Source: Candidatus Wallbacteria bacterium (lineage in GTDB: Bacteria; Muiribacteriota; JAQTZZ01). Taken from it: 64,000 bases of DNA. The notes beneath the pieces are model-generated. The model was not told the origin of the DNA. It saw only the letters and a program-made list of their open reading frames with translations, and ran no database searches. The position numbers were made by a program, and so were the translations under genes. The number at the start of each line of letters is the position of its first letter. Position 1 is the stretch's first letter. This document shows positions 4,641-60,210 of this stretch, one piece after another. The stretch is from assembly GCA_028687545.1 (NCBI GenBank), contig JAQTZZ010000002.1, positions 139,635-203,634 of the forward strand, given 5' to 3'.

Positions 4641-4652
4641 ACACGCGATGAG

Positions 4653-9332: not shown

Positions 9333-10140
9333 AGGTACGCTTCTTAAATCTGTCGTAAAACAACTGCCACTGTTCAGGCACTTTCCTGACAACCTGGTCG
9401 TAGAATTCAAGGTATCTGCGACTTTGATCCTCAACCGATTCATCCGGATTGGCTGAAGTCAGATTCTCAAGCACAATCCTGTGAAATCCATTTTTTTTCC
9501 GCTTCAGGTAAATTCCCACTACAGGAAGCCCGTATCGCTTTGAGAGCCTGGCAGGCCCTGCCGGGAATGACACATCGCATCCGCACCAGGAGAGCCTGAT
9601 CCCGTTCGGTCCTCCGTCATGGTCTGAGATCAGGCCCAGCACTTCCTTTTTCCTGATCAGCCTGAGAACCCCCAGAATGTTGTCATGGTCGATCAATCTG
9701 ATTCCGACCTTATCCCTGTAACTGTTCAATATTTTCTCCTGCAGTTCGCTTCTGGCGCGCAAGTAGATCGAAGTGAGCGGCAGCCCGTATGCCACCAGAG
9801 CACCTCCCAGCAGTTCCCAGTTTCCCAGATGCATTGAGAGAAAAATCATGGCTTTCCCGCTGCTGCGCGCTTTTTTCACCAGTTCCTGATCGAGCTCGTC
9901 AAAACGCACGATCCGCCTGATCTGATCCGGAAACAGGCTGAAATAAAAAAGTTCAAAGAGCAGCTGCCCCTGCTGTCTGAAAAATTCCCTGACAGTCTTC
10001 TGAAGCTTAAATTCACTGATGTCAGGGAAAAGAGCCCGCAGATTCCGCTCAGGCACCTCGGCCAGGGAGGGGGCGCACCGATAAACAAACAGCCCGATAA
10101 GCCGGGCTGTTGAACTTCCAATCCTGTATAAAAGCATCAC
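9319..10140 (-). CDS. lpxL: lipid A late acyltransferase, LpxL/HtrB (lauroyl/myristoyl acyltransferase) family
   Basis: 273-aa product with the family's size and layout (MHLGNWELLGG; DHDGGPNGIRL). Overlaps the giant gene's stop by 4 bp and waaA's start by 14 bp. The exact paralog (LpxL, LpxM or LpxP) is not resolvable. Confidence 0.7.
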   Translation of the reverse strand: MMLLYRIGSSTARLIGLFVYRCAPSLAEVPERNLRALFPDISEFKLQKTVREFFRQQGQLLFELFYFSLFPDQIRRIVRFDELDQELVKKARSSGKAMIFLSMHLGNWELLGGALVAYGLPLTSIYLRARSELQEKILNSYRDKVGIRLIDHDNILGVLRLIRKKEVLGLISDHDGGPNGIRLSWCGCDVSFPAGPARLSKRYGLPVVGIYLKRKKNGFHRIVLENLTSANPDESVEDQSRRYLEFYDQVVRKVPEQWQLFYDRFKKRTYGLD

Positions 10141-36175: not shown

Positions 36176-37855
36176 CTATCCCAGGTCCAGAACCTCTATC
36201 CAGTAATTTTTCTCATTTTTGTCCAGGCTCTCCCCGAACAATGACAGGCCATTGCCGTCATCGCAGATGAATGAGAGGCGGCACTCCCGGTCCAGGCAGG
36301 GACTGGTGAAAAACACCGATATTTCACCGCCCTGCTGAGACTTGCTGGGCAGCCTGGCTTCCTTTTCAGTTCCGTTCAGAGATACTTTCATTGTCCCGGC
36401 ATTCCCGGATTGCGTGCTGGCTCTGAATCTGATACAGAGTTTGCGGGAAGAGGCTGCAGCGGAAAAAATGTACTCAATCCTGCCCTTGAATCTTCCGACC
36501 AGATGCGCCCAGCCGGTCCGGCACCACTGATCGCCAGACCAGTAATTCAGAGGAATCGGCTCGAATTTTCCGGAACTGTAATCTCTGATCTCGATTGCCA
36601 GAGTCCCGCCAGCTTGAAGGTGGTATTTTCCTCTTGGGATCGCTGCTCCGGTTTCCGGTCTGATACCTGTATGCAGAAAGTAAAATTCACTCAGGGCTTC
36701 TCTAGTCAGGTCCTTGGGCAGATAGGAAATCACAGCAGGATTCTGCCTCCCGAAATCAGTTTCTTCCAGCTGCCCGGTCTGACTGAAAAGCTCTGATCCA
36801 GGCATTGGACGGTAGAAACTTAATCCATAGCGTACATTATTTTGCCTGAGATGAGAGAGAAATTCCCCGGTCTTTGATAAATCTTCCATTGTCTCGCCTG
36901 GCAACCCGGCAATCGCCAGCACGAAGGGTTCAATGCCGTGGCAGTGGCAGATCTCCACTGCCCGCAATACCTGCTCGGGAGTAATGTTTTTCCTGATCCT
37001 CGCAAGCATTGAAACAGACCCGCTTTCCAGTCCGATGTCCAGCCGCCTGCACCCCATCCGGCGCAGCAGGTCTGCCACATGATCCGATATGTTGTCGGCT
37101 CGCGCATGAGAGCGGAATCTGATTTCCAGGCCATTTTTCTCAATCAATGCTGCCAGTTTCTGCAACTCCCTGAAATCTGTCAGCAGGTCTGCATCTTCAA
37201 AGGAAAAGCAGTCGATTCCGATTGTCCTGAAGTATTTGAATTCACTGATCAGCATTTCAGGATTGCGGAAATCTACCGTACCTTCGTAAAAAAAAGGATT
37301 GATACAGAATGTGCATTCATGTGGACAGCCACGGGAATAAAAAGTCAGCGCAGTTTTCGGCCCTTCGGGATTCTCAACGTCTTTGAGAGCAGGTTCCTGG
37401 TAAAGAGTCTGTCCCGGGTATTTAATGTATGGAAATTCAGATAAAGTTCCCAGATATTTCAACTGGGATGAAAGCAGTCCATGCCTGTATTTGTCGCTTT
37501 CCAGGCAGTCCAGCAGACTCTGAAAACGATTTTTGTAAATGATATAGTCGAATCCGGCATCCAAGTATTGCTTGAAATAATCGAAATACTCATGAAAAAA
37601 AACAATTCTGCATTGCCCTGACTTCAGTGCCCTGATTTTCATGGCCAGCTCCAGCACTCTCTTTTCTCTGGAAGTGAGGATGAAAATATCGTATAGAGCA
37701 AAGTCCTGGGGGAGGGTATTGTCCTGCAGCTCGAAAAAGGAATAATCGAACTTCCCTTCGCAGAGAGCACCGATGGTGAGAAGATTGAGCACCTCGTTCC
37801 GGCAGTATGAACCGGGACTTGTGGCATTAATAAGAGCAAGCCTGGATTTGACCAT
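36176..37855 (-). CDS. B12-binding-domain radical SAM protein with an extra C-terminal beta-rich domain
   Basis: N-terminal cobalamin-binding-like domain; radical SAM motif YSRGCPHECTFC (CX3CX2C); ~150-aa uncharacterised C-terminal extension; 559 aa. Confidence 0.8.
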   Translation of the reverse strand: MVKSRLALINATSPGSYCRNEVLNLLTIGALCEGKFDYSFFELQDNTLPQDFALYDIFILTSREKRVLELAMKIRALKSGQCRIVFFHEYFDYFKQYLDAGFDYIIYKNRFQSLLDCLESDKYRHGLLSSQLKYLGTLSEFPYIKYPGQTLYQEPALKDVENPEGPKTALTFYSRGCPHECTFCINPFFYEGTVDFRNPEMLISEFKYFRTIGIDCFSFEDADLLTDFRELQKLAALIEKNGLEIRFRSHARADNISDHVADLLRRMGCRRLDIGLESGSVSMLARIRKNITPEQVLRAVEICHCHGIEPFVLAIAGLPGETMEDLSKTGEFLSHLRQNNVRYGLSFYRPMPGSELFSQTGQLEETDFGRQNPAVISYLPKDLTREALSEFYFLHTGIRPETGAAIPRGKYHLQAGGTLAIEIRDYSSGKFEPIPLNYWSGDQWCRTGWAHLVGRFKGRIEYIFSAAASSRKLCIRFRASTQSGNAGTMKVSLNGTEKEARLPSKSQQGGEISVFFTSPCLDRECRLSFICDDGNGLSLFGESLDKNEKNYWIEVLDLG

Positions 37856-37856
37856 C

Positions 37857-39503
37857 TTATCGATTGTTGAGAAAAGCTCCCTGAATCTCAGGAGCTGAGT
37901 TGTTTTTCAAACAGGCCATTCCTGAAAGCAGCAGCAGTATCTTTTCAAATCCTTTATACCCTAAATTCCTGGTGTCTTCAAAAAGGCGCTGAGGCTCGAT
38001 TTTCACTCCATTCGAGGCGGAGAATTCACTCAGCATTTTGCAGAAAAAAGGTCTGCCTTTTTCAAACCAGCGGTCAATCGGCACTTTCAGGGGTGTTTTG
38101 GGTCTTGTGAGTACCTGTTCAGGCAGGTCATTGCGCATCAGTTCATGGAGGATGAATTTGCTCTTTTTCCCGTTCAGCCGGAAATCGTCGGGTAAAGACT
38201 GGAAAAAATTACGGAATCTATAATCTGCAAACGGAACCAATATTTCCGATTCAGCAGCATCAGCAATCCCCCTGATTCTAGGTAACTGATTGTCAGGAAG
38301 GAGTTCATCGTACTGAAAATCAGTCAGCGAATTCATGGGCTTCATCCATTCAATCCAGAAATGTTCCGGTTCAGTCCAACCTTTTTGAAACATCTCCTTT
38401 AATTCGTCTGAATTGAAATATGGCGTAAGATATTCCCTGTGATCAAAGATTTCCTGAAGTTCATCATTGAAAATGTCCTTCAGGATCGTGTTGCGGGGGA
38501 GATTGTCAAGCATCTCTACCGGAAAAAGACTGTAATAGCGGCTCTGCCGCTCTCTCTTTGCCAGAGCGGATAACTGATAATCATATCCCAGCAGCCCTTC
38601 ATCGCTCCCTGCACCATTCACAAAGCTGGAATGCCTTCCTGATAATGCAGCTATGAAGCTGAGCTGCCCCTGAGAACGAAGCAGGAAAGCCTTTTCAGAC
38701 AGAAGTTTTACCATCCAGTGTTTGAACATCTCAAATGTCAAATGGATTTTTTCATGTTTGATCCCAAGATATCTGGCAACTGCCTCGGCAGATTGAATCT
38801 CATTGTAATCAGGTTCGTCAAAAGTAATGGTATAGGCAGTCAAATTCCTGCCCAGCTTTTTCCCGGCTACTGCCAGTGATGACGAATCTATGCCTCCTGA
38901 CAGTAAAAGATTCAAGTCTTTACCGCATCTTAAATTCAGTGCATCCAGAATCAGAGCAAGCAGCGCCTTCTTTGCCTCAGCGAAACTGCCTCTGAAAACT
39001 TCAGCTTTCCAGGTATGGTATTTATCGATTTTCAGAGATTTTAAATTTAATTCCAGACAGTTCCCGGCTGGAAGGGATTGTACTCCAGTCCAGAAGGTCT
39101 GTGTCCCTGGAAGATAAGAATAGCGAAGAAATGACTGGACAGCATTCAGATTCGGAAGTGCCGGTTTCCCGGCCAGAATCGAAACATCGCAGGGATTTTC
39201 ACTGAAACTCAGCACACCCTGCTCCAGACTGTAATAAATCTGCCTGCAACCCATCCGGTCACGAATCAGCAGGCCCAGTTTTTTTTTCTGGTCATGGATC
39301 AGGATCACGGCTTCAAAGTTGAATTCGCGGCAGGCAGCAAGCCCCTTTGTCCTGTATTGTTCACAAAACAATGCTGCAGGGTTGGAAAGTTCAGACAATC
39401 CGAAAAACCTTCCTGATACCGCTACAGTGATCTCACTGGCTGAATGGACCAGCGCTTCTGAACAGATCAGCAGGTTTGATGAGAGGTCCAGCGTACCTCT
39501 CAT
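37857..39503 (-). CDS. asparagine synthetase B-like amidotransferase/adenylating enzyme lacking the N-terminal Cys nucleophile
   Basis: PP-loop LLSGGIDSSSLAV (the AsnB SGGxDSS motif). The N-terminus is MRGT, not MCG, and the ATG is fixed by an ATGA overlap with the upstream TPR gene stop. Confidence 0.8.
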   Translation of the reverse strand: MRGTLDLSSNLLICSEALVHSASEITVAVSGRFFGLSELSNPAALFCEQYRTKGLAACREFNFEAVILIHDQKKKLGLLIRDRMGCRQIYYSLEQGVLSFSENPCDVSILAGKPALPNLNAVQSFLRYSYLPGTQTFWTGVQSLPAGNCLELNLKSLKIDKYHTWKAEVFRGSFAEAKKALLALILDALNLRCGKDLNLLLSGGIDSSSLAVAGKKLGRNLTAYTITFDEPDYNEIQSAEAVARYLGIKHEKIHLTFEMFKHWMVKLLSEKAFLLRSQGQLSFIAALSGRHSSFVNGAGSDEGLLGYDYQLSALAKRERQSRYYSLFPVEMLDNLPRNTILKDIFNDELQEIFDHREYLTPYFNSDELKEMFQKGWTEPEHFWIEWMKPMNSLTDFQYDELLPDNQLPRIRGIADAAESEILVPFADYRFRNFFQSLPDDFRLNGKKSKFILHELMRNDLPEQVLTRPKTPLKVPIDRWFEKGRPFFCKMLSEFSASNGVKIEPQRLFEDTRNLGYKGFEKILLLLSGMACLKNNSAPEIQGAFLNNR

Positions 39504-39901
39504 GATTTACTTTTCCTGCAGTATTCGATCAATTCGAGAATTTTTTCATCCCGCTCATTTTCAGGAATTTTCTCAAGATAATCTAGAGCTTTCACGAAAT
39601 CACCGGACTGCTTGAAAAGGTTGCCGGTTTCATAAAGTGCTTCTGAATCAGAACCCAGTGCCAGCGCTTTTTCAAAATATCCGAATGACTCATCGAATTC
39701 TCCCATTTCACGCAACAGGATCCCCAGTCTGACATAATCGGTTTTTCCAGGATGCGGGTCGTCTTCAAGCCTTTCCTTGAGGATGCTGTAAGCGATCTGG
39801 TAGAGAGCTTTCAGGTAGTACTTGTCATCGCTTTTCGCCTGTTTCAGCAATTCTTTCAGCACCTGGTCATTATCAAGAAGATAAAATGAGTTATTCGACA
39901 T
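39500..39901 (-). CDS. small TPR-repeat protein (133 aa)
   Basis: Two to three TPR-like units; GAGGCGG Shine-Dalgarno before the ATG; stop overlaps the AsnB-like start. Confidence 0.6.
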   Translation of the reverse strand: MSNNSFYLLDNDQVLKELLKQAKSDDKYYLKALYQIAYSILKERLEDDPHPGKTDYVRLGILLREMGEFDESFGYFEKALALGSDSEALYETGNLFKQSGDFVKALDYLEKIPENERDEKILELIEYCRKSKS

Positions 39902-40120
39902 GCCGCCTCAATTGCACACATTGAGATATTATTTACAATAGCATTTTCCATTGCTCATTTCAAACCCGGGTTGTATTGCATCCGTTTTTTTTGCATCCGT
40001 TTTTTTGATTGACATATGAGCTTCATGCAAAAATGACAGTAAAATTTGAAAGTGCCTCTTGAAATTACCACGCTGAGTATATAGATTAAATAATGTACTT
40101 ATCGATTATTTGGGGGTGCA

Positions 40121-40939
40121 ATGAAAGTCATTATCACTGCAGCAGTCACAGGTGCAGAAACCACCCGCGCCCAGCAGCCGAATCTGCCGGTAACTCCGGC
40201 GGAAATCGCCCAGTCCACATATGAAGCCTGCATGGCCGGTGCAGCCATCGTCCACCTGCATGTACGAAAAGACGACGGGACTCCTACCCAGGATGTGGGT
40301 ATCTTTGAGAAAACAATTAAACTGATCCGCGAGAAATGCGAGATTGTGATCGAGATCACCACAGGCGGAGCAGTGGGCATGAGCGATGATGAGCGAGTGG
40401 CTCCGGTCAAACTCAAGCCCGACCTTGCGTCCCTCGACTGCGGCTCAGTCAATTTCGGCGACGACATCCTGCCCAACGGTTTCCCCAGCCTGCGCAGATT
40501 CGCCCGCCTGATGCGCGAACATGGCGTCAAGCCCACCATTGAATGCTTCGATTACGGCCACATCAACAATGCCAAGCTCCTGATCAAGGAAGGCCTGATC
40601 GATCCGCCTTATTATTTCACCTTTGTGACTGGTGTACCGGGTGGAATTCCGGGCACAGTCAAGAATCTTGTCTTCATGCGGGATGAGCTGCCTGAAAATA
40701 CTGTCTGGTCCAGCATCGGCATCGGCGGCAAGGCGTCGCTTCCCATGGGCCTGGCAGCCCTTCTGATGGGCGGCAATGTGCGCACCGGGTTCGAAGACAA
40801 CATCTATTTCAGGAAAGGCCAGCTCGCCAAGAGCAACGCCCAGCTCGTAACCCGGATCGTGGAGTTCGCCAAGGAACTGGGGCACGAGATCGCCACCCCG
40901 GCGGAAGCGAGAGAGATTTTAGGATTGAAGAAAAAGTGA
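40121..40939 (+). CDS. kce: 3-keto-5-aminohexanoate cleavage enzyme (BKACE/DUF849 family)
   Basis: N-terminal VIITAAVTGAETT...PNLPVTPAEIA...AGAAIVHLHVR matches the BKACE family; 272 aa; GGGGGTG Shine-Dalgarno; next to kdd and kamA. Confidence 0.8.
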   Translation: MKVIITAAVTGAETTRAQQPNLPVTPAEIAQSTYEACMAGAAIVHLHVRKDDGTPTQDVGIFEKTIKLIREKCEIVIEITTGGAVGMSDDERVAPVKLKPDLASLDCGSVNFGDDILPNGFPSLRRFARLMREHGVKPTIECFDYGHINNAKLLIKEGLIDPPYYFTFVTGVPGGIPGTVKNLVFMRDELPENTVWSSIGIGGKASLPMGLAALLMGGNVRTGFEDNIYFRKGQLAKSNAQLVTRIVEFAKELGHEIATPAEAREILGLKKK

Positions 40940-40976
40940 ATATCAGTCTGACAAAATTTTTCATTGAGGAGGTTAA

Positions 40977-42017
40977 ATGAAAGGCAATAAGTTCGGAACC
41001 CATCGCGTGATCGAGCCCAAAGGAGTGCTGCCCCAGCCCGCGCTGGTGATCGACAATGACATGAATAAACTATACGACAATGAAATACTCTGCGATGTGA
41101 CCACGCTGAACGTAGACTCGGCAAGCTTCACCCAGATCAAGGACGAAGCCGTAAAAGACCCCAAAAGAATCGAAGAAATAATGCTCGGGATTGTAGAACG
41201 CTTTGGCAAGCATAAAAATCCTGTCACAGGCTCAGGAGGCATGTTCATCGGTAAAGTAGCCAGAATTGGTAAAGCGCTTAAAGGCAAGATCCCTCTTCAG
41301 GAAGGAGACAGAATCGCAAGCCTGGTCTCGCTCTCGCTCACTCCGCTGAAGATCAAGAAAATCAAGAAAATCCACATAGACAAAGATCAGGTGGACATCG
41401 AAGGCCAGGCCATCCTGTTCGAGTCAGCGATTTACGCCAAGCTGCCGGAAGACCTGGACGAGAAACTGGCGCTGGCAGTGCTGGATGTGGCAGGTGCGCC
41501 TGCTCAGACCGCCAAACTGGTGCGGCCGGGCAATACAGTGCTGGTGATAGGCGCAGCAGGCAAATCCGGCCTTCTCTGCTGCTATGTAGCCAAGAAATAT
41601 GCCGGTTGCACCGGCCGTGTGATTGCCCTGGTGCATAGCGAAAAAAGCCTGGACCTGATGAAAAAAGTGAATTTCATTGATAACGTGATCGTGGCCGAAG
41701 CCTCAAACGCAGTGGATGTGCTGGAAAAGGTGGAAGCAGTCACCAACGGACAGCTCTGCGACCTGGTGATCAACTGCGTGAGCCGTGAAAACACGGAGAT
41801 GGGATCGATTCTCCCCTGCAAAGACAATGGTACGGTCTATTTTTTCTCCATGTCCACGAGTTTCACCAAAGCAGCTCTGGGCGCCGAGGGAGTAGGCAAG
41901 GACGTGACCATGGTGATCGGCAACGGCTATACCAAGGATCATGCCGCGATCACTATCGATTTAATGAGGGAATCCGAATGGCTGAGGAAATATTACGAGA
42001 AAAAGTACGTCGGCTGA
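40977..42017 (+). CDS. kdd: L-erythro-3,5-diaminohexanoate dehydrogenase (probable)
   Basis: 346 aa with Rossmann motif VLVIGAAGKSG; GAGGAGG Shine-Dalgarno; sits between kce and kamA as in lysine-fermentation operons. Assignment leans on context as well as sequence. Confidence 0.65.
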   Translation: MKGNKFGTHRVIEPKGVLPQPALVIDNDMNKLYDNEILCDVTTLNVDSASFTQIKDEAVKDPKRIEEIMLGIVERFGKHKNPVTGSGGMFIGKVARIGKALKGKIPLQEGDRIASLVSLSLTPLKIKKIKKIHIDKDQVDIEGQAILFESAIYAKLPEDLDEKLALAVLDVAGAPAQTAKLVRPGNTVLVIGAAGKSGLLCCYVAKKYAGCTGRVIALVHSEKSLDLMKKVNFIDNVIVAEASNAVDVLEKVEAVTNGQLCDLVINCVSRENTEMGSILPCKDNGTVYFFSMSTSFTKAALGAEGVGKDVTMVIGNGYTKDHAAITIDLMRESEWLRKYYEKKYVG

Positions 42018-42028
42018 AAGGAGTGCCT

Positions 42029-43273
42029 ATGGCTAGAGTCTTTTCGGATGTGCCTGAAAAAAAGTGGCAGGACTGGCAGTGGCAGCTGCAGAACCGCCTT
42101 ATGAAACTGCCTGATCTGAAGAAATGCTACCCTCTGACTGGCCAGCAGGTCAAGGATATCCAGAAAGTGCTGGTCAGCTTCAGGATGGCGATCACCCCAT
42201 ATTACCTTTCACTGATCGACCCTCAGAATCCTGACGATCCTGTGATGAAACAGGCTATTCCCACTATCCATGAAACAGAATTTTACCCCACAGATATGGA
42301 TGATCCCCTGCATGAGGAAGTGGATTCGCCTTGTCCTGGTCTCACCCATCGCTACCCTGACCGGGCGCTGCTTTTAGTGACTCATGTCTGCTCGATGTAC
42401 TGCAGGCACTGCACACGCAGGAGAAAAGTCGGAGACAATGAGGACCGGCACCTTCCCAAAAAGCAGCTGCTGGCCGGCTTTGATTACATCAGGAAAACGC
42501 CGCAGATCAGGGATGTGATTCTCTCAGGCGGTGACCCCTTCACCTTGACTGATCAGGAAATAGAGTGGCTGCTCTCTGAGCTTCGCAAGATCAAGCATGT
42601 GGAGATCATCCGTATCGGCACCAGGACTCCGGTCGTACTTCCCATGCGCATCACGGAAGCTCTCTGCCGGATGATCAAGAAGTACCATCCGGTCTACGTC
42701 AATACTCACTTCAATCATTTCCAGGAAATCAACGCAGACTCCAAACGGGCCTGCGAAATGCTTGCAGACCACGGTATTCCGCTCGGCAACCAGTCAGTGC
42801 TTTTAAAAGGAGTCAACGACAATCCGGCAGTGATGAAAAAGCTGGTCTGCGACCTCTTGAAGATCCGCGTCAAACCCTATTACATCTATGAATGCGACAT
42901 GTCCCGCGGCATCAGCCATTTCAGGACCCCTGTCGCCACAGGCATCAGCATCATGGAAAACCTGCGCGGACATGTCTCTGGCCTCGCTGTCCCGCATTTT
43001 GTAATCGACGCTCCAGGCGGAGGCGGAAAAGTGCCTGTGATGCCGACCTACATCATCTCCCAGGGGCCCGGTACGATCGTGCTGCGCAACTACGAAGGCA
43101 AAATCATTTCCTGCCACGACCGTCCGGGCGAAGCCGAAACCGAGGACCTGCCCAAAAACCTGAGCAGATACTATTCCATGGAAGGTGTGGCGGAACTCCT
43201 GAACACCCAGAATCACGCGCTGGATTACGGCAAGATCCTCAAGAAAGGTCCCAAGCGCGGAAAAAGAAAATAA
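42029..43273 (+). CDS. kamA: L-lysine 2,3-aminomutase (radical SAM, PLP-dependent)
   Basis: KamA N-terminal W.DWQWQL region, radical SAM CSMYCRHC, and a conserved C-terminal PLP region. Start set at the ATG at 42029 after AAAGGAG; the track's upstream start at 41978 overlaps kdd. Confidence 0.85.
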   Translation: MARVFSDVPEKKWQDWQWQLQNRLMKLPDLKKCYPLTGQQVKDIQKVLVSFRMAITPYYLSLIDPQNPDDPVMKQAIPTIHETEFYPTDMDDPLHEEVDSPCPGLTHRYPDRALLLVTHVCSMYCRHCTRRRKVGDNEDRHLPKKQLLAGFDYIRKTPQIRDVILSGGDPFTLTDQEIEWLLSELRKIKHVEIIRIGTRTPVVLPMRITEALCRMIKKYHPVYVNTHFNHFQEINADSKRACEMLADHGIPLGNQSVLLKGVNDNPAVMKKLVCDLLKIRVKPYYIYECDMSRGISHFRTPVATGISIMENLRGHVSGLAVPHFVIDAPGGGGKVPVMPTYIISQGPGTIVLRNYEGKIISCHDRPGEAETEDLPKNLSRYYSMEGVAELLNTQNHALDYGKILKKGPKRGKRK

Positions 43274-43317
43274 TTGCTCTGATTTTTAAACAGTCTGTTT
43301 CAAAATCGAATTCCAAG

Positions 43318-43350
43318 AAGAGAAATCCAACGGGTTTCTCTTCTTTTTTT
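43318..43350 (+). terminator. intrinsic terminator after kamA
   Basis: Perfect 9-bp stem GAAGAGAAA / TTTCTCTTC with a 9-nt loop, followed directly by a T7 run. Confidence 0.5.
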
Positions 43351-43395
43351 GAACCGATTCCATTTTTTTTCGTATAGTATGTAAAAGAAGGCAAA

Positions 43396-43899
43396 ATGGA
43401 CGCAAACGAAACACTCAAAAAATGGTTTTCCGAATATCACAGAGAGCTGTTTCTGTTCCTGCGGAAGCTGAGCAGAGACCATCATCTGGCGCAGGACCTG
43501 ATCCAGGAAACTTATGTCAGGGCTTACCTGAAATTCCACCTGTACGATCCCTCTCGCGGAAAACTGAAAAACTGGCTCTACCGGATCGCCATAAATCTTT
43601 ATCACGACCATCTGCGTTTTGAAAGCAGAGAACAGGAAACAGTCCGGAAACTGTCTGTGGAAAAACAGCTGGAATCCCAGGGCGACAAAAACGGAGAGGA
43701 ATGCTTTAAAATTCTACTGGAGCGAGCAGTGGACAGCCTGATTCCGGAGAAAAGGGAAATTCTGCTGTTATCGCTGGACAATAAGCTTGAAGAGGTAGGG
43801 CGGATTCTGGATCTGCCTGAGGGAACGGTAAAAAGCCGGCTTTTTCATATCAGACGGGAACTGCAGTCCCTGATCGAAAAACTGGAAACGGAGGCGTGA
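43396..43899 (+). CDS. ECF-type RNA polymerase sigma-70 factor
   Basis: Region 2 (HLAQDLIQETYVRAYLKF) and region 4 helix-turn-helix (LPEGTVKSRLFHIRREL); 167 aa. Confidence 0.85.
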   Translation: MDANETLKKWFSEYHRELFLFLRKLSRDHHLAQDLIQETYVRAYLKFHLYDPSRGKLKNWLYRIAINLYHDHLRFESREQETVRKLSVEKQLESQGDKNGEECFKILLERAVDSLIPEKREILLLSLDNKLEEVGRILDLPEGTVKSRLFHIRRELQSLIEKLETEA

Positions 43900-44670: not shown

Positions 44671-45684
44671 GTGTGTCTGGATTTTCGTGACAATACCGCG
44701 GGTTTGGGATACAATTACTGCATGCCGAAAGCCGCGCTTGAAAAACTCTTTTCAGAACCTGCCGTGTTCCTGACAGGCAACAGGAAAAATGCGGGGAAAA
44801 CCACGGTTCTGAATCACCTTGTCAGATACGCAAATTCGAAAAGAGAGGCGGAACATGTCTCTCTTTTTTCCATTGGCTGGGATGGCGAAGGACGTGACAG
44901 GATCTTTGAGAATCGGAAACCGGAAATCACTGTTTTCCAAGGCATGCGCTTTCTGACCGCTGAATACGCCCTGTCGCGAGCGGATTTCCCGTATCGGATT
45001 CTGTCAGGCTTCTCTTTCCGCTCCAATGCTGGAAATTACTATCTATGCCAAGCTCTGGCTGAAGGAAAAATCGAACTGATCGGACCTGAAGCTAATTATC
45101 AGCTGGATGAGGTTTTTTCGATTATCAAGGAATCGATGCCTGAAGGCACAGTATTGATCGACGGGGCGCTGGACAGGATCTCACAGATGGCTTCGCGGAA
45201 AGCGCCCGGCTTTGTCTTCATTTTCTCCCCTCTGCCGGGTAAAACCACTGAACAGATGCTGGCTGATTTCAGGCTGCAGCTCTCGCTTTTTGCACTTCCA
45301 AAAGCCGGATTGCTTTCACCCGGGGAGTCGGAAATCACGGGTTACAGTAAAGGCAAGGTCGTGCTGGAATGCGGAAAAAACGATCCTTTCACCGCTGAAT
45401 CGCTTGAGCTTGTTTATATTAAAGGCGCTCTCACCAGGAGCCTTGCCGATAAATTCCCCGGGGGGCTGGAACTGGTGGTGCAGGACTTCACCAGGATTTT
45501 TCTGGGTCCTGAAATTGAGCGGCGCAGGATCAGCGTGCTCGAACAGCCGGTGCCGCTGCTTTTCTGTTATAATCCAGGTCTGACAGGTATTGGTTTTCAG
45601 TCAATCCACAAAGAGCTTCTGGAAATGAATTCTGGATTTTTCCCCTCAGTCCGACTCTTAGATGTGATGGAACTGGAGAATTAG
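44671..45684 (+). CDS. hypothetical P-loop-containing protein
   Basis: Walker A-like FLTGNRKNAGKTTVLN near the N-terminus. GTG start at 44671 preceded by GAGG; the alternative ATG at 44722 has a weaker ribosome-binding site. Confidence 0.5.
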   Translation: MCLDFRDNTAGLGYNYCMPKAALEKLFSEPAVFLTGNRKNAGKTTVLNHLVRYANSKREAEHVSLFSIGWDGEGRDRIFENRKPEITVFQGMRFLTAEYALSRADFPYRILSGFSFRSNAGNYYLCQALAEGKIELIGPEANYQLDEVFSIIKESMPEGTVLIDGALDRISQMASRKAPGFVFIFSPLPGKTTEQMLADFRLQLSLFALPKAGLLSPGESEITGYSKGKVVLECGKNDPFTAESLELVYIKGALTRSLADKFPGGLELVVQDFTRIFLGPEIERRRISVLEQPVPLLFCYNPGLTGIGFQSIHKELLEMNSGFFPSVRLLDVMELEN

Positions 45685-45685
45685 C

Positions 45686-47263
45686 ATGGAAAGCGCAGTC
45701 CGCCTCTATACAAAGTATTCTCTGCAGAAAAGTAAAACCGCCAGGCTGTCCCTGCTCAAGAGGGTCTCAGCCGAACACCCGGAAATCCCGCTGCAGGGCG
45801 AAAAAGAAAAATTCTTTGAACTGGTGATAATTGAAGAGCAGGACAAGCCTCTGAGGGATTTTGCCCTTGGAATTTTACACAAGCTGAAAGGGTACGAAGT
45901 TAAGCCTGTAAAGACTGCCGGACGCCCTCCTGCCAAACCTGTCAAAATCGAGCAGAATTTCAGATTCTCGGTGCAGCGCGAAAATTTCCATGGCCCTCCT
46001 GCTCAGCTCAACAGCGAATTGAAAAAGCACTTTGCCGAACAATGCCGCGATCCGTTTTTTTCAGAAGTGCCGTTTCTCAACTACCTGCGCCGCGATCTGC
46101 GTGAAATCATCCGTAAAATCCTGAAAAAACCGCCTGTTTTCGGATTCTTTCAGTCAAAGCAGCACAATGGAGAAGCAGTTTATACTCTGGAAAAATCACT
46201 GGACCTGCAGCTTTTCTCAGGGCTGATCCCGCTGGACAGAGCGTTTTTTGCGGAAAATCACCTGCTGGACCCGGTGGCCAGGCTGGTGCCTGAACTCTAT
46301 TATACTCTCGTGCTGCTGGACCCGGATGGTCTGACACTGATCTTCAGGGGAGGCCTGGAACAGGTCAGCGCCTGCTATATGCGTCTGCCTGTTTCCGCTG
46401 TTTCGGACTGTTACTATCGAGACAATCGCTGCTTCCTAAAATTGACTGGCGAGATGCTGGTTTTCAGCGAGGTCTCAGAAGATGTTTCCTCTGAAATGGA
46501 GCTTGCCGTAAAGCTGAGCCGGGTTCTCGTTTCAGCGGAAGACCTTGGAATCATCGAGCGTGAAAAAAAGCGCCTTTCAGTGGAACTCAAGGGACGCATC
46601 ATCACGCAGGCGGTTTACAGCAAAAGACTTCAACTGATCACCCGGCTGAAGGATGCGATTTTTTCCCAGAGAAACATCGGCAGCATCCTGGGAAACCTGC
46701 TTTCTAAAAGTTCAGACGCCAGTAACAGGCTTATCTTCCGGGAATACGGGAAAGAGCTCTCGCTCCTTTTTTCGGACATCGTAGGCTTTACCAAAAAAAC
46801 TCAGCAGATCGGCACTGTCGGGATCATGGGAGTGCTTGCACTTTACGAAAAAATTGCGGAAAACGCAGCCGTAAAATATTCCGGACAGATCATCAAGAAA
46901 ATGGGAGACGGGATTCTGTTTTCCTTTGAAAAAAAGGAAAACGCAGCGCAATGCGCTTTCCATCTTCTTTCGGAAATCGATTCCACCAATCAAAATCTGG
47001 AGCATAACCACCGCTTTCAGATCAGGATCGTGCTTAATTCAGGCCTGATCTTTCAGAAAAACGGCGACATCTTCGGGGATCCGGTGAACATGATTTCCAG
47101 GATAGAAAAGGAAGCCGGGGCAGGGGAAATCGTAGCTACTGAAAGCTTCATCACCGGGATTTCTTCTGAATTTCAATGTCAGAGCCTGGGGGAAAAAAAT
47201 CTCAAGGGTTTTGAGGAACCAGTAACAATTTTCAGAATCATCAAAACCCCGGAGGACAGATGA
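45686..47263 (+). CDS. class III adenylate/guanylate cyclase-domain protein with ~330-aa uncharacterised N-terminal region
   Basis: C-terminal cyclase homology domain (LLFSDIVGFT...KKMGDGILFSF...RIVLNSGLIFQKNGDIFGDPVNMISRIEK); starts 1 nt after the upstream stop. Confidence 0.75.
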   Translation: MESAVRLYTKYSLQKSKTARLSLLKRVSAEHPEIPLQGEKEKFFELVIIEEQDKPLRDFALGILHKLKGYEVKPVKTAGRPPAKPVKIEQNFRFSVQRENFHGPPAQLNSELKKHFAEQCRDPFFSEVPFLNYLRRDLREIIRKILKKPPVFGFFQSKQHNGEAVYTLEKSLDLQLFSGLIPLDRAFFAENHLLDPVARLVPELYYTLVLLDPDGLTLIFRGGLEQVSACYMRLPVSAVSDCYYRDNRCFLKLTGEMLVFSEVSEDVSSEMELAVKLSRVLVSAEDLGIIEREKKRLSVELKGRIITQAVYSKRLQLITRLKDAIFSQRNIGSILGNLLSKSSDASNRLIFREYGKELSLLFSDIVGFTKKTQQIGTVGIMGVLALYEKIAENAAVKYSGQIIKKMGDGILFSFEKKENAAQCAFHLLSEIDSTNQNLEHNHRFQIRIVLNSGLIFQKNGDIFGDPVNMISRIEKEAGAGEIVATESFITGISSEFQCQSLGEKNLKGFEEPVTIFRIIKTPEDR

Positions 47264-48861
47264 AAGATATTTTCGTCCATCTAAGAATCGCCGAATTTCT
47301 GGAGCAGGAATGGGAGCTGTATTCTCCTGTCTGCCGCCGCCGGAAAGAGGATTTCCTTCACTTCCATACTCCAGGGGAGGAATGCAATTTGAGACATGAA
47401 TGGATGATCCAGCGGCATTTTCTGGAGTTTCTCACTAAGCTCCCGGATGCCGGTGAAAATGTCCGTGAATCACTGCGGAAAATTCCGGATGTCAGCAGCA
47501 TGCTCGAACAGGAGAATCTGGCTGTATTCGAACTTTTTGACCTGAAAAAATTTCTGCTGCATTTACGGAAAATCAGGGAAATCTGGTCCTCCAGCTCCTT
47601 AAGACCCTTTGTTTTCAAGCACGCTTATCAAAATCTCTGGCAGTTCCTGACTTTTTCCCAGGATGAGCATAGTTTCGCGATAGTATCAGGTTATTCCAGG
47701 GCATTAAGCAGCATCCGCACAAAAATTTCCAGCCTGCGCAATGCCCGCGACAGGCGCATCCAGGCTTTCTACAGACAGCTCGAACGGAAATTCAAGCTGA
47801 AAAAGCGGATCATGTCCGAAGAATTCACTGTTGATCTGGAGTCAAAACTTTTACCTGTTCTGAGAAAGTCCCCTCATTTTACGCTGATCGAAGAGAAAGG
47901 CGGCTATTGCCTGTTCAGGATCAGATTTCCTTCTGCTGTCGAACGCCTGAATCAATCGATCAACAATCTGCGCAGAAAGGAAGCCGCTGCCGAGCTGAAA
48001 GTGCTGGACAGGCTCAACGCCTGCTATCGGAAAGTCAGGTCTAATCTGAAAAAAGATTACGAAAACCTGATACTCTGGGAAAAGTATTTTTCCCTGGCCA
48101 GTATGTCGCAGAAACTGGGGCTAATTGAACCTGAATTGAGAAAGCGCGGAGTTTCTGTAAAAAACGGCCGTTATCTGCCTCTGGCAAAGGATCTGGCATT
48201 GCAGAATCTCAACTACACTCCGCTTGATTTCGAAACATCAACCAGCGCCAGCATCATCTCAGGCTCCAACATGGGCGGCAAGACACAGGTCCTGAAAGCC
48301 ATCGGATTCCTGCAGGGGCTGTTCCAGCTCGGTTTCTTCCTGCCGGCTGAGACATTTTCCTCAAGCCTCTTTTTTGAAATCTACTTTTCCGCAGCCGAGC
48401 GTTTTCCGGAAAAAGCCGGACTCTCCAGTTTCGGGTCAGAAATCAGCTACATCTCAGAAGCCCTGGAAAAGATAGACCACCGCTGCCTGTACCTGGTGGA
48501 CGAATTCTCGCGCACCACCAATATCCGCGAAGGCCTGGCCCTCAATTACGCGCTGCTCTCGCATTTTTCAGGGTCAAAATCCACTCTGGTGCTGACCACT
48601 CACTTTGACATTCTCACCGGATATCTCAAAGTCTCCCAGTTCCAGACCGGCGGCTTGAAAGGCAAAAAAGAACTTCCCTCCCTTTATAAACTCCACGGCC
48701 CTGAGCGCGCCGCATATTTCCACAAGCTGATGGACTACCACCTGCACCCGAAAAAGGGTTCCGCAGTGCCCGAAGAAGCGCTCACCATAGCCGAAATCCT
48801 GGGCCTGCAGCCCGGCATCATCGCTGATGCCAGGAAGTTTTTAGTTAAACTGAGAAAGTAA
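47260..48861 (+). CDS. MutS domain V-like ABC-type ATPase (no mismatch-binding or Smr domain evident)
   Basis: Walker A SGSNMGGKTQVLKA, Walker B LYLVDEF, and LVLTTHFD (MutS-type His motif); coiled-coil-rich N-terminal half; 4-bp overlap with the cyclase gene. Confidence 0.65.
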   Translation: MKDIFVHLRIAEFLEQEWELYSPVCRRRKEDFLHFHTPGEECNLRHEWMIQRHFLEFLTKLPDAGENVRESLRKIPDVSSMLEQENLAVFELFDLKKFLLHLRKIREIWSSSSLRPFVFKHAYQNLWQFLTFSQDEHSFAIVSGYSRALSSIRTKISSLRNARDRRIQAFYRQLERKFKLKKRIMSEEFTVDLESKLLPVLRKSPHFTLIEEKGGYCLFRIRFPSAVERLNQSINNLRRKEAAAELKVLDRLNACYRKVRSNLKKDYENLILWEKYFSLASMSQKLGLIEPELRKRGVSVKNGRYLPLAKDLALQNLNYTPLDFETSTSASIISGSNMGGKTQVLKAIGFLQGLFQLGFFLPAETFSSSLFFEIYFSAAERFPEKAGLSSFGSEISYISEALEKIDHRCLYLVDEFSRTTNIREGLALNYALLSHFSGSKSTLVLTTHFDILTGYLKVSQFQTGGLKGKKELPSLYKLHGPERAAYFHKLMDYHLHPKKGSAVPEEALTIAEILGLQPGIIADARKFLVKLRK

Positions 48862-48875
48862 ATATTGTCAACTAT

Positions 48876-50129
48876 TTATGCCGCACAAGATAACTCGACA
48901 TTTTCACATGTTTTCGCATCAGCTCTGTACCAACAGAATCTCAATGCTACAGCCAGAATGATCTGAACGATTGCAGACAGGATCAGGATCGCCCAGGCTG
49001 AGGTGAAAGCTGCGGCAAAAGTGCCGATCAGGAGCGATAAGATCGCGGCCGGGCTTTCCAGGAATGAGAACAGGGCAAAGACCTGGCCCCTGTTTTCGTC
49101 GGCCACCTGCTGCTGGACAATCGTGTTGAGAATGATGGTGTGAGCGGCGCTCGCCAGGCCCAGAAAAGCGAAAATCAGGATTGCCAGACGATTATAACCG
49201 TTCAGCAGGAACCACAGGAAAAACAGTCCGTCCCAGAAGAGGATGTTCAGGTAAAGTCTGAGCGGATTGCGGCCATCCAGGATCAGGCCCAGAAGCAGAC
49301 TGCCGACTACGATCCCGATTCCGAGCGCTGAGAGAAGCACACCCCAGGCGAGCTCTGCCTTGTCGCCCAGGCCCAGGCCGTCCTTGAGATGGAAATAGAT
49401 CAGGATTCCCTGCATTGTCATGGCGATGGTCACGAAAGTGTTGATCAGAAGCATCCTGCGCAAGTTCAGGTCTGACCAGACTGCAGACAAACTCCTGCCT
49501 ATGGGCTGCCGGTTATTTTTCGATTTTACAGAAATATGTTTCTCATCGACCCTCAGATTGTAAATGATCAGGGCTGAGATCAGAAAGGTAGCGCCGTCGA
49601 TCAGGAAAGCAGGTGCAGTTCCAAGCAGCCCGGCCACGGCAGCGCCGAAGGCAGAGCCGCAGATCAGGTTGACATTGCTCAGGGATGAATTGAAGGAATT
49701 GTAAAGCACCAGGTCCTCGCGGCGCACCAGGTTCGGTTCCAGAGCGCTCTGGGCCGGCTGCCTGAATACATAGACCAGGGAGCTCAGGAACGCAAAGAAG
49801 TAAATCCCTGGCAGGCTGTCCACAAAAATCACGCAAGCAATGGCCAGGGCGGAAAAGACATCGCAGAGCACCATTACCATCCTGCGGGACAAGCAGTCCA
49901 CGATCCGTCCTGCGAACAGCCCGCACAGCAGGAATGGCACGAATTTCATGACTGTCAGGAAACCCAGGTCAGTGATTCTCCCGCCTGAGATGTCATAGAC
50001 TTTTTTCAGAAGCGCGAAATAGCTGACATGATTCCCGAGGCTCGAAATAAAACCCGCGGAAATCAGCAGCATCACCGGCCGGTTGGCAAACAGCATCCCG
50101 TATTTTTTGAGTGCAGCCAGTCTTTTCAT
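48876..50129 (-). CDS. MFS transporter
   Basis: 417 aa, ~12 predicted TM helices, MFS-like loop motifs. Confidence 0.8.
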   Translation of the reverse strand: MKRLAALKKYGMLFANRPVMLLISAGFISSLGNHVSYFALLKKVYDISGGRITDLGFLTVMKFVPFLLCGLFAGRIVDCLSRRMVMVLCDVFSALAIACVIFVDSLPGIYFFAFLSSLVYVFRQPAQSALEPNLVRREDLVLYNSFNSSLSNVNLICGSAFGAAVAGLLGTAPAFLIDGATFLISALIIYNLRVDEKHISVKSKNNRQPIGRSLSAVWSDLNLRRMLLINTFVTIAMTMQGILIYFHLKDGLGLGDKAELAWGVLLSALGIGIVVGSLLLGLILDGRNPLRLYLNILFWDGLFFLWFLLNGYNRLAILIFAFLGLASAAHTIILNTIVQQQVADENRGQVFALFSFLESPAAILSLLIGTFAAAFTSAWAILILSAIVQIILAVALRFCWYRADAKTCENVELSCAA

Positions 50130-50226: not shown

Positions 50227-50604
50227 TAAAGATCATTAATCCCCTTTCCCGGTCCGGTTGGACCGTAAGAAAACCATTTTTCAGAGCGATAAACTGAAAC
50301 AGTTTAACGCTCAGAAAACAGAGCTGAAGCGAACAAAAATGAGCTCCGCGGGGATTGATGTGAGATGCTGTCAGTGATCTGACTGAAGGATCAGGAATCG
50401 AATCCCGCAGGGAGCAAACGTTCAGGGCCTTGGGAACTCAAGTCATCCATATTGCCTCCCTGTAGGATATTTGGAAGAGTTCGGAAAATCCCTCTTCCAA
50501 ATTAATTATACAGCAAATATCGGCATAAAGCCAGATAAGATTAAGAACCAGCCGGCTTGTCATGGTCTGAAACCCGGGTTATATGTTGTACAGATGGGGA
50601 GACA

Positions 50605-52182
50605 ATGAAACTATCTGTTTTAATTTCACTGCTGTTCATGTCCGTCGTTTCGGCGGGACCGCTTTCGCTTACTCCCATGCAGAAAGCTTCCGACTTTTAT
50701 GCCCTGACCAAGATCATGGAAACAGGTTATGCGATGCTGGAATACAAGAAAACCAATATCCTCAAGGAAGATTACCTGCAGATAAAGAAGCGGTATTTCT
50801 TCGATATCTCGAAAACCAGAACTGATGCGGAATACTATACATTGCTTTTCAAGTACATCCATGAATTCAAGGACGGCCACCTTTACCTGGACGGTGTGTT
50901 CAATCTGGACCTGGCAATGCTGCCGGTAGATTTTCGGTATCTTGAGGGAAAAGTGGTGGTATCCGACATCTACATTACTGGGACAAAGTTCGGAATCGGG
51001 GATGAACTGATCGAATTCGACGGCAAACCGACCGCATCTGTCCTGGAAGAGCTGGCTCCTTATTACACCGGCGGAGGCTCAGCCGGACATCAGCTGAAGG
51101 GGATATTGCAGGCAATCGGTTACCGCTCCAGCAACAGGCTGATGCCTGCTGACGGGAGCAGCGCGGTTCTCAAGCTGAAAAGCAGGAAAACCGGCTCCGA
51201 GTATTCCGATACAGAGGCTTGGGTCATCAAGAAATACAGCGAGATCTATTCCAGGGGATTCAGGCTGCCAGCCAGGCTCCACTCGTTCTATGAAAACGAC
51301 GGGAATTGGAGTTTTGACCCTCTGTATGTGCAGACGCTGATCAGGAAGCAGCTTATGGGCAGTCCTGTAGCCGGCCAGAGGCTTGAAGATAACCTGACCG
51401 CAGAAATAATACTGTACACCTCCGGATCGAAACAGTACAAAATCGGCAGGATCAGGGTTCCGGACTATGATGGATGGGCTATTGAATCGTTCGACACTCT
51501 GCTCAGCGGACTTGCTGACTGCGACGGCCTGATTTTGGACCAGAGGGACAACCCGGGCGGTTACATCGATCTCTGCCAGAACCTGGTTTCTCGTTTCCTG
51601 GATGCACCTCTGACAAATCTGGAGTTTTCCGTTCCGCTCAACCGGCACTGGCTGAATAATGTTGAACTCAAGCTCAAGTTGTATACTCAAGCCCAGTATC
51701 CTGCTGATCAGATCGCCGTGGTAAAGACCTGCAGGGATACGATGTACGCAAATGCCAATGCAGGCAAGAAAATGAGTGATTTCATACCGTTCTTCTATGC
51801 AAGCAAACTCCAACCTGCTGAGCTGAAATTTCTTAAGCCGGTGCTGGTCCTGATTGACTCAGGCTGCTTCAGTTGCGGGGATCTGGTGCCTGCATCGTTC
51901 AGGCAGAAAGACTGGATGGGCAAACTCAAGCTTTTCGGAGAGACAACAGGCGCCGGAGGAGGAAATGTAGTCCAAGCCGGCCCGCTTCCTCTCAGTGAAA
52001 CAATGTTCCACGTCACAGCCAGCCTGGCCCGCTGGGGTGGAAAAAACATCATCGAAAACAATGGGATCAGCCCGGATGTGGTTTCCCCATATACAATCTC
52101 CGACCTGTACAGCGAGGCTGTAGAAAATAAAAACACATACCTGGAAAAGGCCTGTGCCGAACTGGTCAAGATGATAAACTGA
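50605..52182 (+). CDS. S41-family peptidase (C-terminal processing protease-like), secreted
   Basis: Signal peptide MKLSVLISLLFMSVVSAG; S41-type DQRDNPGGYIDL motif. Start set at the ATG at 50605 after GGGGAG. Confidence 0.7.
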   Translation: MKLSVLISLLFMSVVSAGPLSLTPMQKASDFYALTKIMETGYAMLEYKKTNILKEDYLQIKKRYFFDISKTRTDAEYYTLLFKYIHEFKDGHLYLDGVFNLDLAMLPVDFRYLEGKVVVSDIYITGTKFGIGDELIEFDGKPTASVLEELAPYYTGGGSAGHQLKGILQAIGYRSSNRLMPADGSSAVLKLKSRKTGSEYSDTEAWVIKKYSEIYSRGFRLPARLHSFYENDGNWSFDPLYVQTLIRKQLMGSPVAGQRLEDNLTAEIILYTSGSKQYKIGRIRVPDYDGWAIESFDTLLSGLADCDGLILDQRDNPGGYIDLCQNLVSRFLDAPLTNLEFSVPLNRHWLNNVELKLKLYTQAQYPADQIAVVKTCRDTMYANANAGKKMSDFIPFFYASKLQPAELKFLKPVLVLIDSGCFSCGDLVPASFRQKDWMGKLKLFGETTGAGGGNVVQAGPLPLSETMFHVTASLARWGGKNIIENNGISPDVVSPYTISDLYSEAVENKNTYLEKACAELVKMIN

Positions 52183-60034: not shown

Positions 60035-60210
60035 ATTCTTATTTTTTCTCCAGCAGAATCCACTCATCCTGGAAATTCACGATGTCTTCGATGAACTTCT
60101 TGTAACTCGCGTATTCAGAAGCCGGATAGGTGTCGCCGACTCTCTTGAAATCCAGGTTGACTTTCAAAATACTGCGGCTGCTTGTATCGAATGAGGCTGT
60201 AAACTCCATG
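60035..60210. repeat. direct repeat copy 2 (176 bp, identical to 52182..52357); this copy is the 3' end of the intact gene
   Basis: Exact identity to 52182..52357 by direct comparison. Confidence 0.95.

Follow-up and report, generated by a model that had tools for sequence, protein, structure and literature searches.

A kce-kdd-kamA lysine-fermentation operon of Candidatus Wallbacteria with displaced kamB and kamC homologues and no kamDE nearby: probably a pathway split across loci

Lysine fermentation is known from the gene clusters of the Fusobacterium nucleatum and Clostridium sticklandii type and from the Kat variant of Candidatus Cloacamonas acidaminovorans and Bacteroidetes. In Cloacimonas acidaminovorans the lysine-fermentation genes are scattered over several loci and the pathway is functional (PMC3149608). 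The dehydrogenase Kdd is reported to accept its native substrate with strict specificity (PMC9902596), and an ATP-dependent activating auxiliary protein, E2, of ~80 kDa is described for lysine 5,6-aminomutase (5,6-LAM) (PMC3958899). Here we analyse a relative of these clusters in a 64,000-nucleotide stretch (64 kb, hereafter the window) of a Candidatus Wallbacteria genome (assembly GCA_028687545.1, contig JAQTZZ010000002.1, positions 139,635 to 203,634 of the forward strand). The window carries kce, kdd and kamA, in this order and ahead of an intrinsic terminator, lacks kamD and kamE throughout, and shares with other Wallbacteria-like lineages a conserved unit, kce-kdd-kamA-kamB', in which kamB' encodes a divergent homologue of the accessory protein KamB. 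An earlier note on this DNA, made from the sequence alone, described a smaller and less rearranged cluster. We regard the locus as probably a copy of the standard lysine-fermentation cluster that has been truncated and rearranged, belonging to an ordinary pathway that has been split, with kamDE elsewhere in the genome.

The first part of the locus comprises the following features, in window coordinates:

40059..40094, plus strand: two overlapping sigma-70-like promoter matches, from a consensus scan only (9/12 each), in the 219-nt gap 5' of kce
40121..40939, plus strand: kce, for the enzyme that cleaves 3-keto-5-aminohexanoate, 272 aa; Pfam BKACE PF05853, 1.5e-108
40977..42017, plus strand: kdd, L-erythro-3,5-diaminohexanoate dehydrogenase, 346 aa; 267 bits on NF052381 against a cutoff of 200
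42029..43273, plus strand: kamA, lysine 2,3-aminomutase, a radical SAM and pyridoxal phosphate (PLP) enzyme; 554 bits on TIGR03820 against a cutoff of 525
43315..43352, plus strand: intrinsic terminator, with a 14-bp stem (43315-43345), a 3-nt loop and a U7 tail, 42 nt past the kamA stop

The earlier calls of kce, kdd and kamA hold up, because the three proteins pass their NCBIfam equivalog cutoffs, Kce barely so (387 bits on NF052387, cutoff 382), and match solved structures. Kce aligns with a solved Kce (PDB 2Y7D, 1e-79), including the HxH, E and R..ED active-site and metal positions, and is 78-83% identical to its counterparts in other Wallbacteria-like contigs. The earlier note allowed that the kdd candidate might be an unrelated dehydrogenase; beyond its NF052381 score, the protein aligns end to end with a solved 3,5-diaminohexanoate dehydrogenase (PDB 7DL3, E = 1.8e-122, ~60% identity by eye), and the equivalent of Glu310 is conserved. 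About 105 columns are invariant in the window protein and 28 homologues, whose gene contexts are in part canonical and in part not, and the window Kdd retains all columns that are invariant among the homologues in canonical contexts. KamA, whose likely start is the ATG at 42029 with a GGAG ribosome-binding site just 5', matches lysine 2,3-aminomutase (PDB 2A5H, 8e-154) and shares with it the iron-sulfur motif CSMYCRHC, the PLP-lysine motif IDAPGGGGK and the lysine-binding Asp motifs QCD/ECD. The PLP lysine and the two aspartates that bind the lysine epsilon-amine are assigned by a residue numbering that we take to be the established one.

The gaps between these genes are short (37 nt from kce to kdd, 11 nt from kdd to kamA), so the three form a single operon. 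The hairpin after kamA, followed directly by a U-tract, has the make-up of a rho-independent terminator, with a predicted free energy of -18.8 kcal/mol (z = -3.5 against shuffles). Terminator-like sites are not enriched in the region (16 observed against 11.7 +/- 3.4 expected), and the one after kamA, in an intergenic gap, is the strongest. The order kce-kdd-kamA ending in a clear terminator is thus as the earlier note had it. Neither a lysine riboswitch nor any other Rfam family was found in the leader and intergenic regions.

The same note took the terminator for the end of a compact cluster. The terminator stands, but the lysine-related genes do not end there: homologues of kamB and kamC lie downstream, in a second block on the plus strand.

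43396..43899, plus strand: extracytoplasmic function (ECF) type sigma factor; Sigma70_r2 4e-17, r4_2 4e-7; TIGR02937
43901..44662, plus strand: 253-aa polytopic membrane protein, hydrophobic, with no family match; starts 1 nt past the sigma factor stop
44722..45684, plus strand: kamB', divergent KamB-family P-loop protein; 149 bits on NF052386, under the cutoff of 210, over a near-full profile
45686..47263, plus strand: 525-aa protein that combines a domain of unknown function (N-terminal, ~350 aa) with a class III nucleotidyl cyclase domain (C-terminal); PF00211 1e-11
47260..48861, plus strand: kamC', KamC-family MutS-like ATPase; 343 bits on NF052383 against a cutoff of 300, full-length profile; MutS_V
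48876..50129, minus strand: convergent major facilitator superfamily (MFS) transporter gene; TIGR00900 1.5e-42; 14 nt from the kamC' stop

A promoter-like site lies upstream of the sigma factor gene (43349-43378), and the block is tightly packed, with gaps or overlaps of at most 8 nt between the called open reading frames (ORFs); the gap ahead of kamB' is 59 nt when the NCBI-annotated start at 44722 is taken. From its position, the 253-aa membrane protein is possibly an anti-sigma partner. The two accessory cutoffs are again those of NCBIfam. The convergent MFS gene marks the end of the cluster, at the point where kamD would be expected.

The missing mutase genes were sought in the window alone, which sets the scope of all negatives on kamDE, kat, atoAD and kal. 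Two KamD and two KamE sequences, as well as Kat, AtoA and AtoD from canonical loci, gave no match below E = 0.03 in tblastn over all 64 kb, in agreement with the earlier claim for kamDE. A Kal-type domain was not found in the family scans of the window ORFs, nor a KamD or KamE remnant by tblastn at the 3' end of kamC'. The family scans assign the other ORFs to envelope and lipopolysaccharide functions, transporters, TPR and radical-SAM proteins.

How unusual is this arrangement? We retrieved 9 loci by a Kdd scan of genome contigs and 80 further loci by a metagenome scan with a Kdd alignment, classed by tblastn; they are cited below by L numbers. The dominant order in metagenomes is kce-kdd-kamA-kamB-kamC-kamD-kamE, and kamA, kamB/C and kamD occur together in 38 of the fetched loci, mostly in that order; a JGI contig, L014, reads HTH-atoD-atoA-kce-kdd-kamA-kamB-kamC-kamD-kamE-kat. 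The window matches the canonical order as far as kamC and breaks at the kamC|kamD junction, and canonical clusters reach only about 55-67% identity to its enzymes. Among the 58 Kdd loci with adequate flank, the window itself included, kamD lies within ~10 kb in 43 and is missing in 15, about a quarter. Most loci without kamDE are dispersed through the Kdd tree and interspersed with canonical clusters, e.g., kdd-kamA-kamB|MatE (L030), kdd-kamA-kamB-kamC|truA (L038), kce-kdd-kamA|...permease (L078) and several orphan kdd. Adjacency to kamDE is thus often lost. Consistently kamDE-less groups are 1) the window with L001, sister to the Myxococcota-like L002 and L003, and 2) the orphan kdd genes of Pseudothermotoga.

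The Kdd loci show some further peculiarities. Between kce and kamA, many canonical clusters have two tandem kdd paralogues, one with ~57-60% and the other with 65-67% identity to the query, as in the metagenomic loci L017, L018, L019, L025, L036, L048, L063, L079 and L085. The Kdd encoded at 4431-5834 of L098 has 467 aa instead of ~346, and it is matched in tblastn by two segments that overlap, residues 3-215 and residues 85-344, a sign of an internal partial duplication. In Pseudothermotoga sp. (L007 10001-12561, also L004 and L010) the orphan kdd, 60% identical, stands two genes upstream of panC (pantoate-beta-alanine ligase), and the 10 kb around it contain neither kce nor kamA nor kamDE; Kdd may therefore act on another beta-amino acid in these bacteria.

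A number of arguments link the accessory genes to the missing mutase. First, kamB/C accompany kamDE where clusters are split elsewhere (L012, L049, L074), and this makes KamDE, the 5,6-aminomutase, the likely client of KamB and KamC, rather than KamA; there are also clusters with kamA and kamDE that have no kamB/C (L023, L046, L086). Second, action on KamDE, as these annotation-level data suggest, would be consistent with E2 of 5,6-LAM; our literature search found no experimental link of KamB/KamC to E2, and nothing relevant on KamB/KamC experiments or Wallbacteria lysine metabolism. Third, the closest non-self relatives of KamC' (28-29%) lie directly upstream of kamD-kamE. In one of the split loci, L012 (Elusimicrobiales), two ~36-aa copies of a kamE segment (15283-15390 and 15553-15660, 92-97% identical) were seen 1.4-1.8 kb past the intact kamE.

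Both accessory proteins of the window are divergent, being 25-33% identical to canonical ones. Across canonical clusters, however, KamB/KamC are only 25-40% identical, compared with 55-66% for KamD/KamE, so that such divergence is normal and no sign of decay here. In an alignment of 26 KamB proteins 22 columns are invariant, and KamB' retains all of them, including Walker A KNxGKT, IGxDGE and IDGAxxR. Its identity is 38-41% to the KamB' proteins of L011 and L099, encoded next after kamA, and to those of further contigs from a KamB' search. The ATPase motifs of KamC' are intact (Walker A GSNMGGKT, DEF.RTTN, THF). We therefore rejected the idea that KamB' and KamC' are decaying relics: the canonical proteins are equally divergent, the invariant positions and ATPase motifs are kept, and the ORFs have stayed intact in spite of saturation at synonymous sites. 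The KamB' model from AlphaFold (AF2, pLDDT 86) shows a generic P-loop NTPase, and a Foldseek search of it against PDB returned nothing at E <= 0.001, with MeaB, SRP GTPases and MobB only at E > 0.01.

The first four genes form a unit beyond this genome. All contigs with a Kdd 78-90% identical to that of the window carry kce-kdd-kamA-kamB', the unit being found in L001, L008 and L011 (both from the Wallbacteria metagenome-assembled genome STB_16, GCA_028711905.1), L096, L097 and L099. In L001, L011, L096 and L099, kamB' overlaps or adjoins kamA with no terminator between them; the L001 contig terminates within kamB'. The terminator and the pair of sigma factor and membrane protein genes between kamA and kamB' occur in the window only, which makes them a lineage-specific insertion into the four-gene unit. 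No homologue of the ECF sigma factor was found in any related locus, and a search for repeats or mobile-element scars flanking the insertion returned only short chance matches. Synonymous sites between the Wallbacteria-like lineages are saturated (proportion of synonymous differences, pS, 0.67-0.85), but the nonsynonymous proportion (pN) stays at 0.06-0.22 in kce, kdd and kamA and reaches 0.44 in kamB', against a pS of about 0.8, which indicates that all four genes have long been kept intact under purifying selection.

That kamB/C travel with kamDE elsewhere, and that KamB' is conserved here, makes a split pathway the best reading of the locus; the reported strict specificity of Kdd (PMC9902596) and the Cloacimonas precedent (PMC3149608) support it. 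If so, the pathway would run as follows: 1) KamA would convert L-lysine to beta-lysine; 2) a B12- and PLP-dependent KamDE from another locus, served by KamB' and perhaps by KamC' too, would convert beta-lysine to 3,5-diaminohexanoate; 3) Kdd would catalyse the oxidative deamination of L-erythro-3,5-diaminohexanoate; 4) Kce would turn 3-keto-5-aminohexanoate and acetyl-CoA into acetoacetate and 3-aminobutyryl-CoA; and 5) the enzymes that act after these, namely Kal or Kat, a CoA transferase and butyryl-CoA dehydrogenase, would likewise be encoded elsewhere. KamB' would be retained owing to the existence of its KamDE client, and the inserted ECF sigma factor may drive kamB'-cyc-kamC' (cyc being the cyclase-domain gene) as a separate transcription unit. 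On this reading kamDE would exist elsewhere in this genome. The comparative sequence data favour the split over the alternatives, and fall short of proof.

Several observations weigh against a simple split. Through 40 kb upstream and 21 kb downstream of the cluster there is no kamDE. The nearest relatives by Kdd, the Myxococcota-like L002 and L003, likewise have no kamDE nearby. In four other Wallbacteria-like contigs (L011, L096/L097, L099) the unit ends at kamB' without kamC, kamD or kamE, so that the four genes look like a self-contained module. What follows kamB' is not related to kam: a HicA-like ORF in L011, a convergent DUF134 gene in L096 and a convergent carbamoyltransferase gene in L099. 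The upstream neighbourhoods also vary between contigs, with L008 offering 9 kb of upstream sequence. The HicA-like toxin ORF, at L011 2930-3154, is found just where the STB_16 kam unit stops.

These facts invite the reading that kce-kdd-kamA-kamB' is a complete lysine-degrading module that works without the B12 aminomutase. Either Kdd would deaminate beta-lysine at C3 and Kce would split 3-keto-6-aminohexanoate into acetoacetate and 4-aminobutyryl-CoA, or a non-homologous enzyme would carry out the 5,6-amino shift. At least four lineages, deeply diverged and with differing neighbourhoods, have the unit but no kamC/D/E beside it, which speaks for such a module, as do the kamDE-less kdd-kamA or kce-kdd-kamA loci outside Wallbacteria (L002, L030, L038, L078) and the functional diversity of BKACE, with NCBIfam Kce-like equivalogs for other substrates among the weaker matches. 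We nevertheless consider it unlikely. Kdd and Kce exceed cutoffs of specific equivalogs, and Kdd has kept its canonical invariant columns and is described as strictly specific. The kamDE-less loci have no recurrent extra gene able to replace KamDE, and a KamDE client is also to be expected from the fact that KamB', with relatives that accompany kamDE, has been kept. Moreover, 4-aminobutyryl-CoA is expected to lactamise readily, which by our own chemical reasoning counts against the first version.

Another possibility is a loss of kamDE that left the other enzymes with roles of their own, e.g., KamA supplying beta-lysine for use as a building block or osmolyte, or Kdd and Kce using 3,5-diaminohexanoate or a related beta-amino acid from neighbouring organisms. 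Orphan kdd genes do occur in unrelated contexts (Pseudothermotoga near panC; L043-L045, L061, L070), KamA exceeds an AblA-type equivalog cutoff, and osmotic-stress genes (trehalose-P synthase, MscS) lie nearby in the window. Yet the family scans found no AblB-type or GNAT acetyltransferase domain in the ORFs neighbouring kamA, and the short gaps, the co-transcription and the order, which is that of the canonical catabolic cluster, point to one pathway, as does the strong purifying selection acting jointly on kce, kdd and kamA. We find this very unlikely.

The window comes from a metagenome-assembled genome (locus tags PHW04_; identical proteins are on record for Kdd, KamB' and KamC'), and the canonical order is interrupted precisely between kamC and kamD, as would be expected if kamDE truly followed kamC' and the contig were chimeric or collapsed at the kamC'/MFS junction. 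Such an artefact is hardly credible, since the contig is 222 kb long (221,925 bp) with an even GC content over the junction, and in other, independent contigs, too, the kam unit stops with no kamDE. Furthermore, the arrangement cyc-kamC'-MFS...DUF3857-DUF3857 recurs in an independent Wallbacteria assembly, L100.

L100 also bears on the role of KamC'. In the window (45686-48861) and in L100 (6588-9782), two deeply diverged Wallbacteria genomes, the cyclase-domain gene is followed directly by the kamC' gene. L100 encodes the closest relative of the 525-aa protein (38%), and its KamC' is 44% identical to that of the window. In L100 the pair is followed by an MFS gene of a different MFS family, with a strand relative to kamC' opposite to that in the window, and beyond it by the same two DUF3857 genes. 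The pair is on another contig than the kce-kdd-kamA-kamB' of that genome, and the more distant relatives of the cyclase protein (29%) have no KamC neighbour. The pairing kept in both genomes points to the cyclase-domain protein as the conserved partner of the Wallbacteria KamC'. This also counts against our preferred reading, and the role of KamC' in lysine metabolism here is uncertain, because in L100 it adjoins the cyclase gene and not kam genes. There are hints that the KamC 'reactivase' family has uses outside lysine metabolism. One could go further and propose that Wallbacteria-like, and possibly some Myxococcota-like, bacteria degrade lysine with a self-contained kce-kdd-kamA-kamB' and no B12-dependent 5,6-aminomutase, with Kdd/Kce acting on the 3,6-diamino/3-keto-6-amino series or with the help of an unrecognised enzyme, and that a KamC-family ATPase was separately recruited to an adenylate-cyclase-domain protein. 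We think that this wider proposal is quite unlikely to be right.

The cyclase protein itself matches the Ma1120 cyclase in PDB (9e-17), with the motifs FSDIVGFT, KKMGDG and GDPVN..SR and the sequence GDIFGDPVNMISR in that alignment; its putative catalytic residues would have the roles usual in the family (two metal-binding Asp, substrate-specifying Lys/Asp, transition-state Asn/Arg). It has three full-length relatives only, among 1.84 billion representative proteins. We rejected the idea that its N-terminus is a fused KamB domain (hhalign probability 0.6%).

Other features of the window stand apart from the pathway. Divergent from kce, at 36176-39901 on the minus strand, are genes for a radical SAM protein (best matches to radical SAM families that bind B12), an amidotransferase resembling asparagine synthase and a small TPR protein; the set may act in peptide or lipid modification, and its amidotransferase and TPR genes are syntenic in L001. 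At 2001-7982 and 10137-18107 there are two tandem large radical-SAM/SPASM proteins (879 and 1109 aa, the second with TPR repeats) and a giant TPR/HEAT-repeat protein of 2656 aa on the minus strand. A 541-aa protein (50557-52182) matches the CPAF (chlamydial protease-like activity factor) family at 1.9e-41, below the cutoff, which is unusual outside Chlamydiae. The two tandem DUF3857 genes, one of which has a transglutaminase-core domain, are at 60039-63946 on the minus strand in the window and at 11169-15333 in L100, and are syntenic and 48% and 63% identical.

The whereabouts of kamDE matter beyond this genome. If the genes are merely elsewhere, Wallbacteria probably ferments lysine, clusters for lysine fermentation fragment often, and pipelines that call pathways by synteny should allow for split clusters. 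If near-complete genomes with kce-kdd-kamA-kamB' turned out to have no kamDE, the classic fermentation would have a branch that is independent of cobalamin, and the role of KamB would need rethinking.

Compared with the known systems, the locus has in common with the canonical cluster (Fusobacterium nucleatum / Clostridium sticklandii type, with kal and atoAD) the enzymes of steps 1, 3 and 4 and the order from kce to kamC, including homologues of its accessory genes 'HP' and 'mutS' (PMC3149608), now KamB and KamC. It differs in that kamD, kamE, kal and atoAD are missing from the window, that a terminator, the ECF sigma factor and the membrane protein genes separate kamA from kamB', and that the cyclase gene separates kamB' from kamC'. 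The Kat variant (PMC3149608), whose clustered form we found in L014, L020, L028, L032 and L084, shares its core genes with the window, which has no kat (class III aminotransferase). The AblA/AblB pathway for the osmolyte N-epsilon-acetyl-beta-lysine in methanogens resembles the locus by its lysine 2,3-aminomutase, as KamA is above the TIGR03820 cutoff; unlike that pathway, the window has no adjoining AblB, and its kamA shares an operon with two catabolic genes, kdd and kce. Finally, KamB', a P-loop NTPase, and KamC', an ABC/MutS-type ATPase, are reminiscent of the ATP-dependent auxiliaries of adenosylcobalamin (AdoCbl) enzymes, such as E2 of 5,6-LAM, MeaB-type chaperones and the diol dehydratase reactivase. 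The KamB' model is only weakly and non-significantly similar to MeaB and SRP GTPases, and the presumed client mutase is not adjacent in the window, whereas in other genomes the relatives of KamB and KamC are encoded directly upstream of kamDE.

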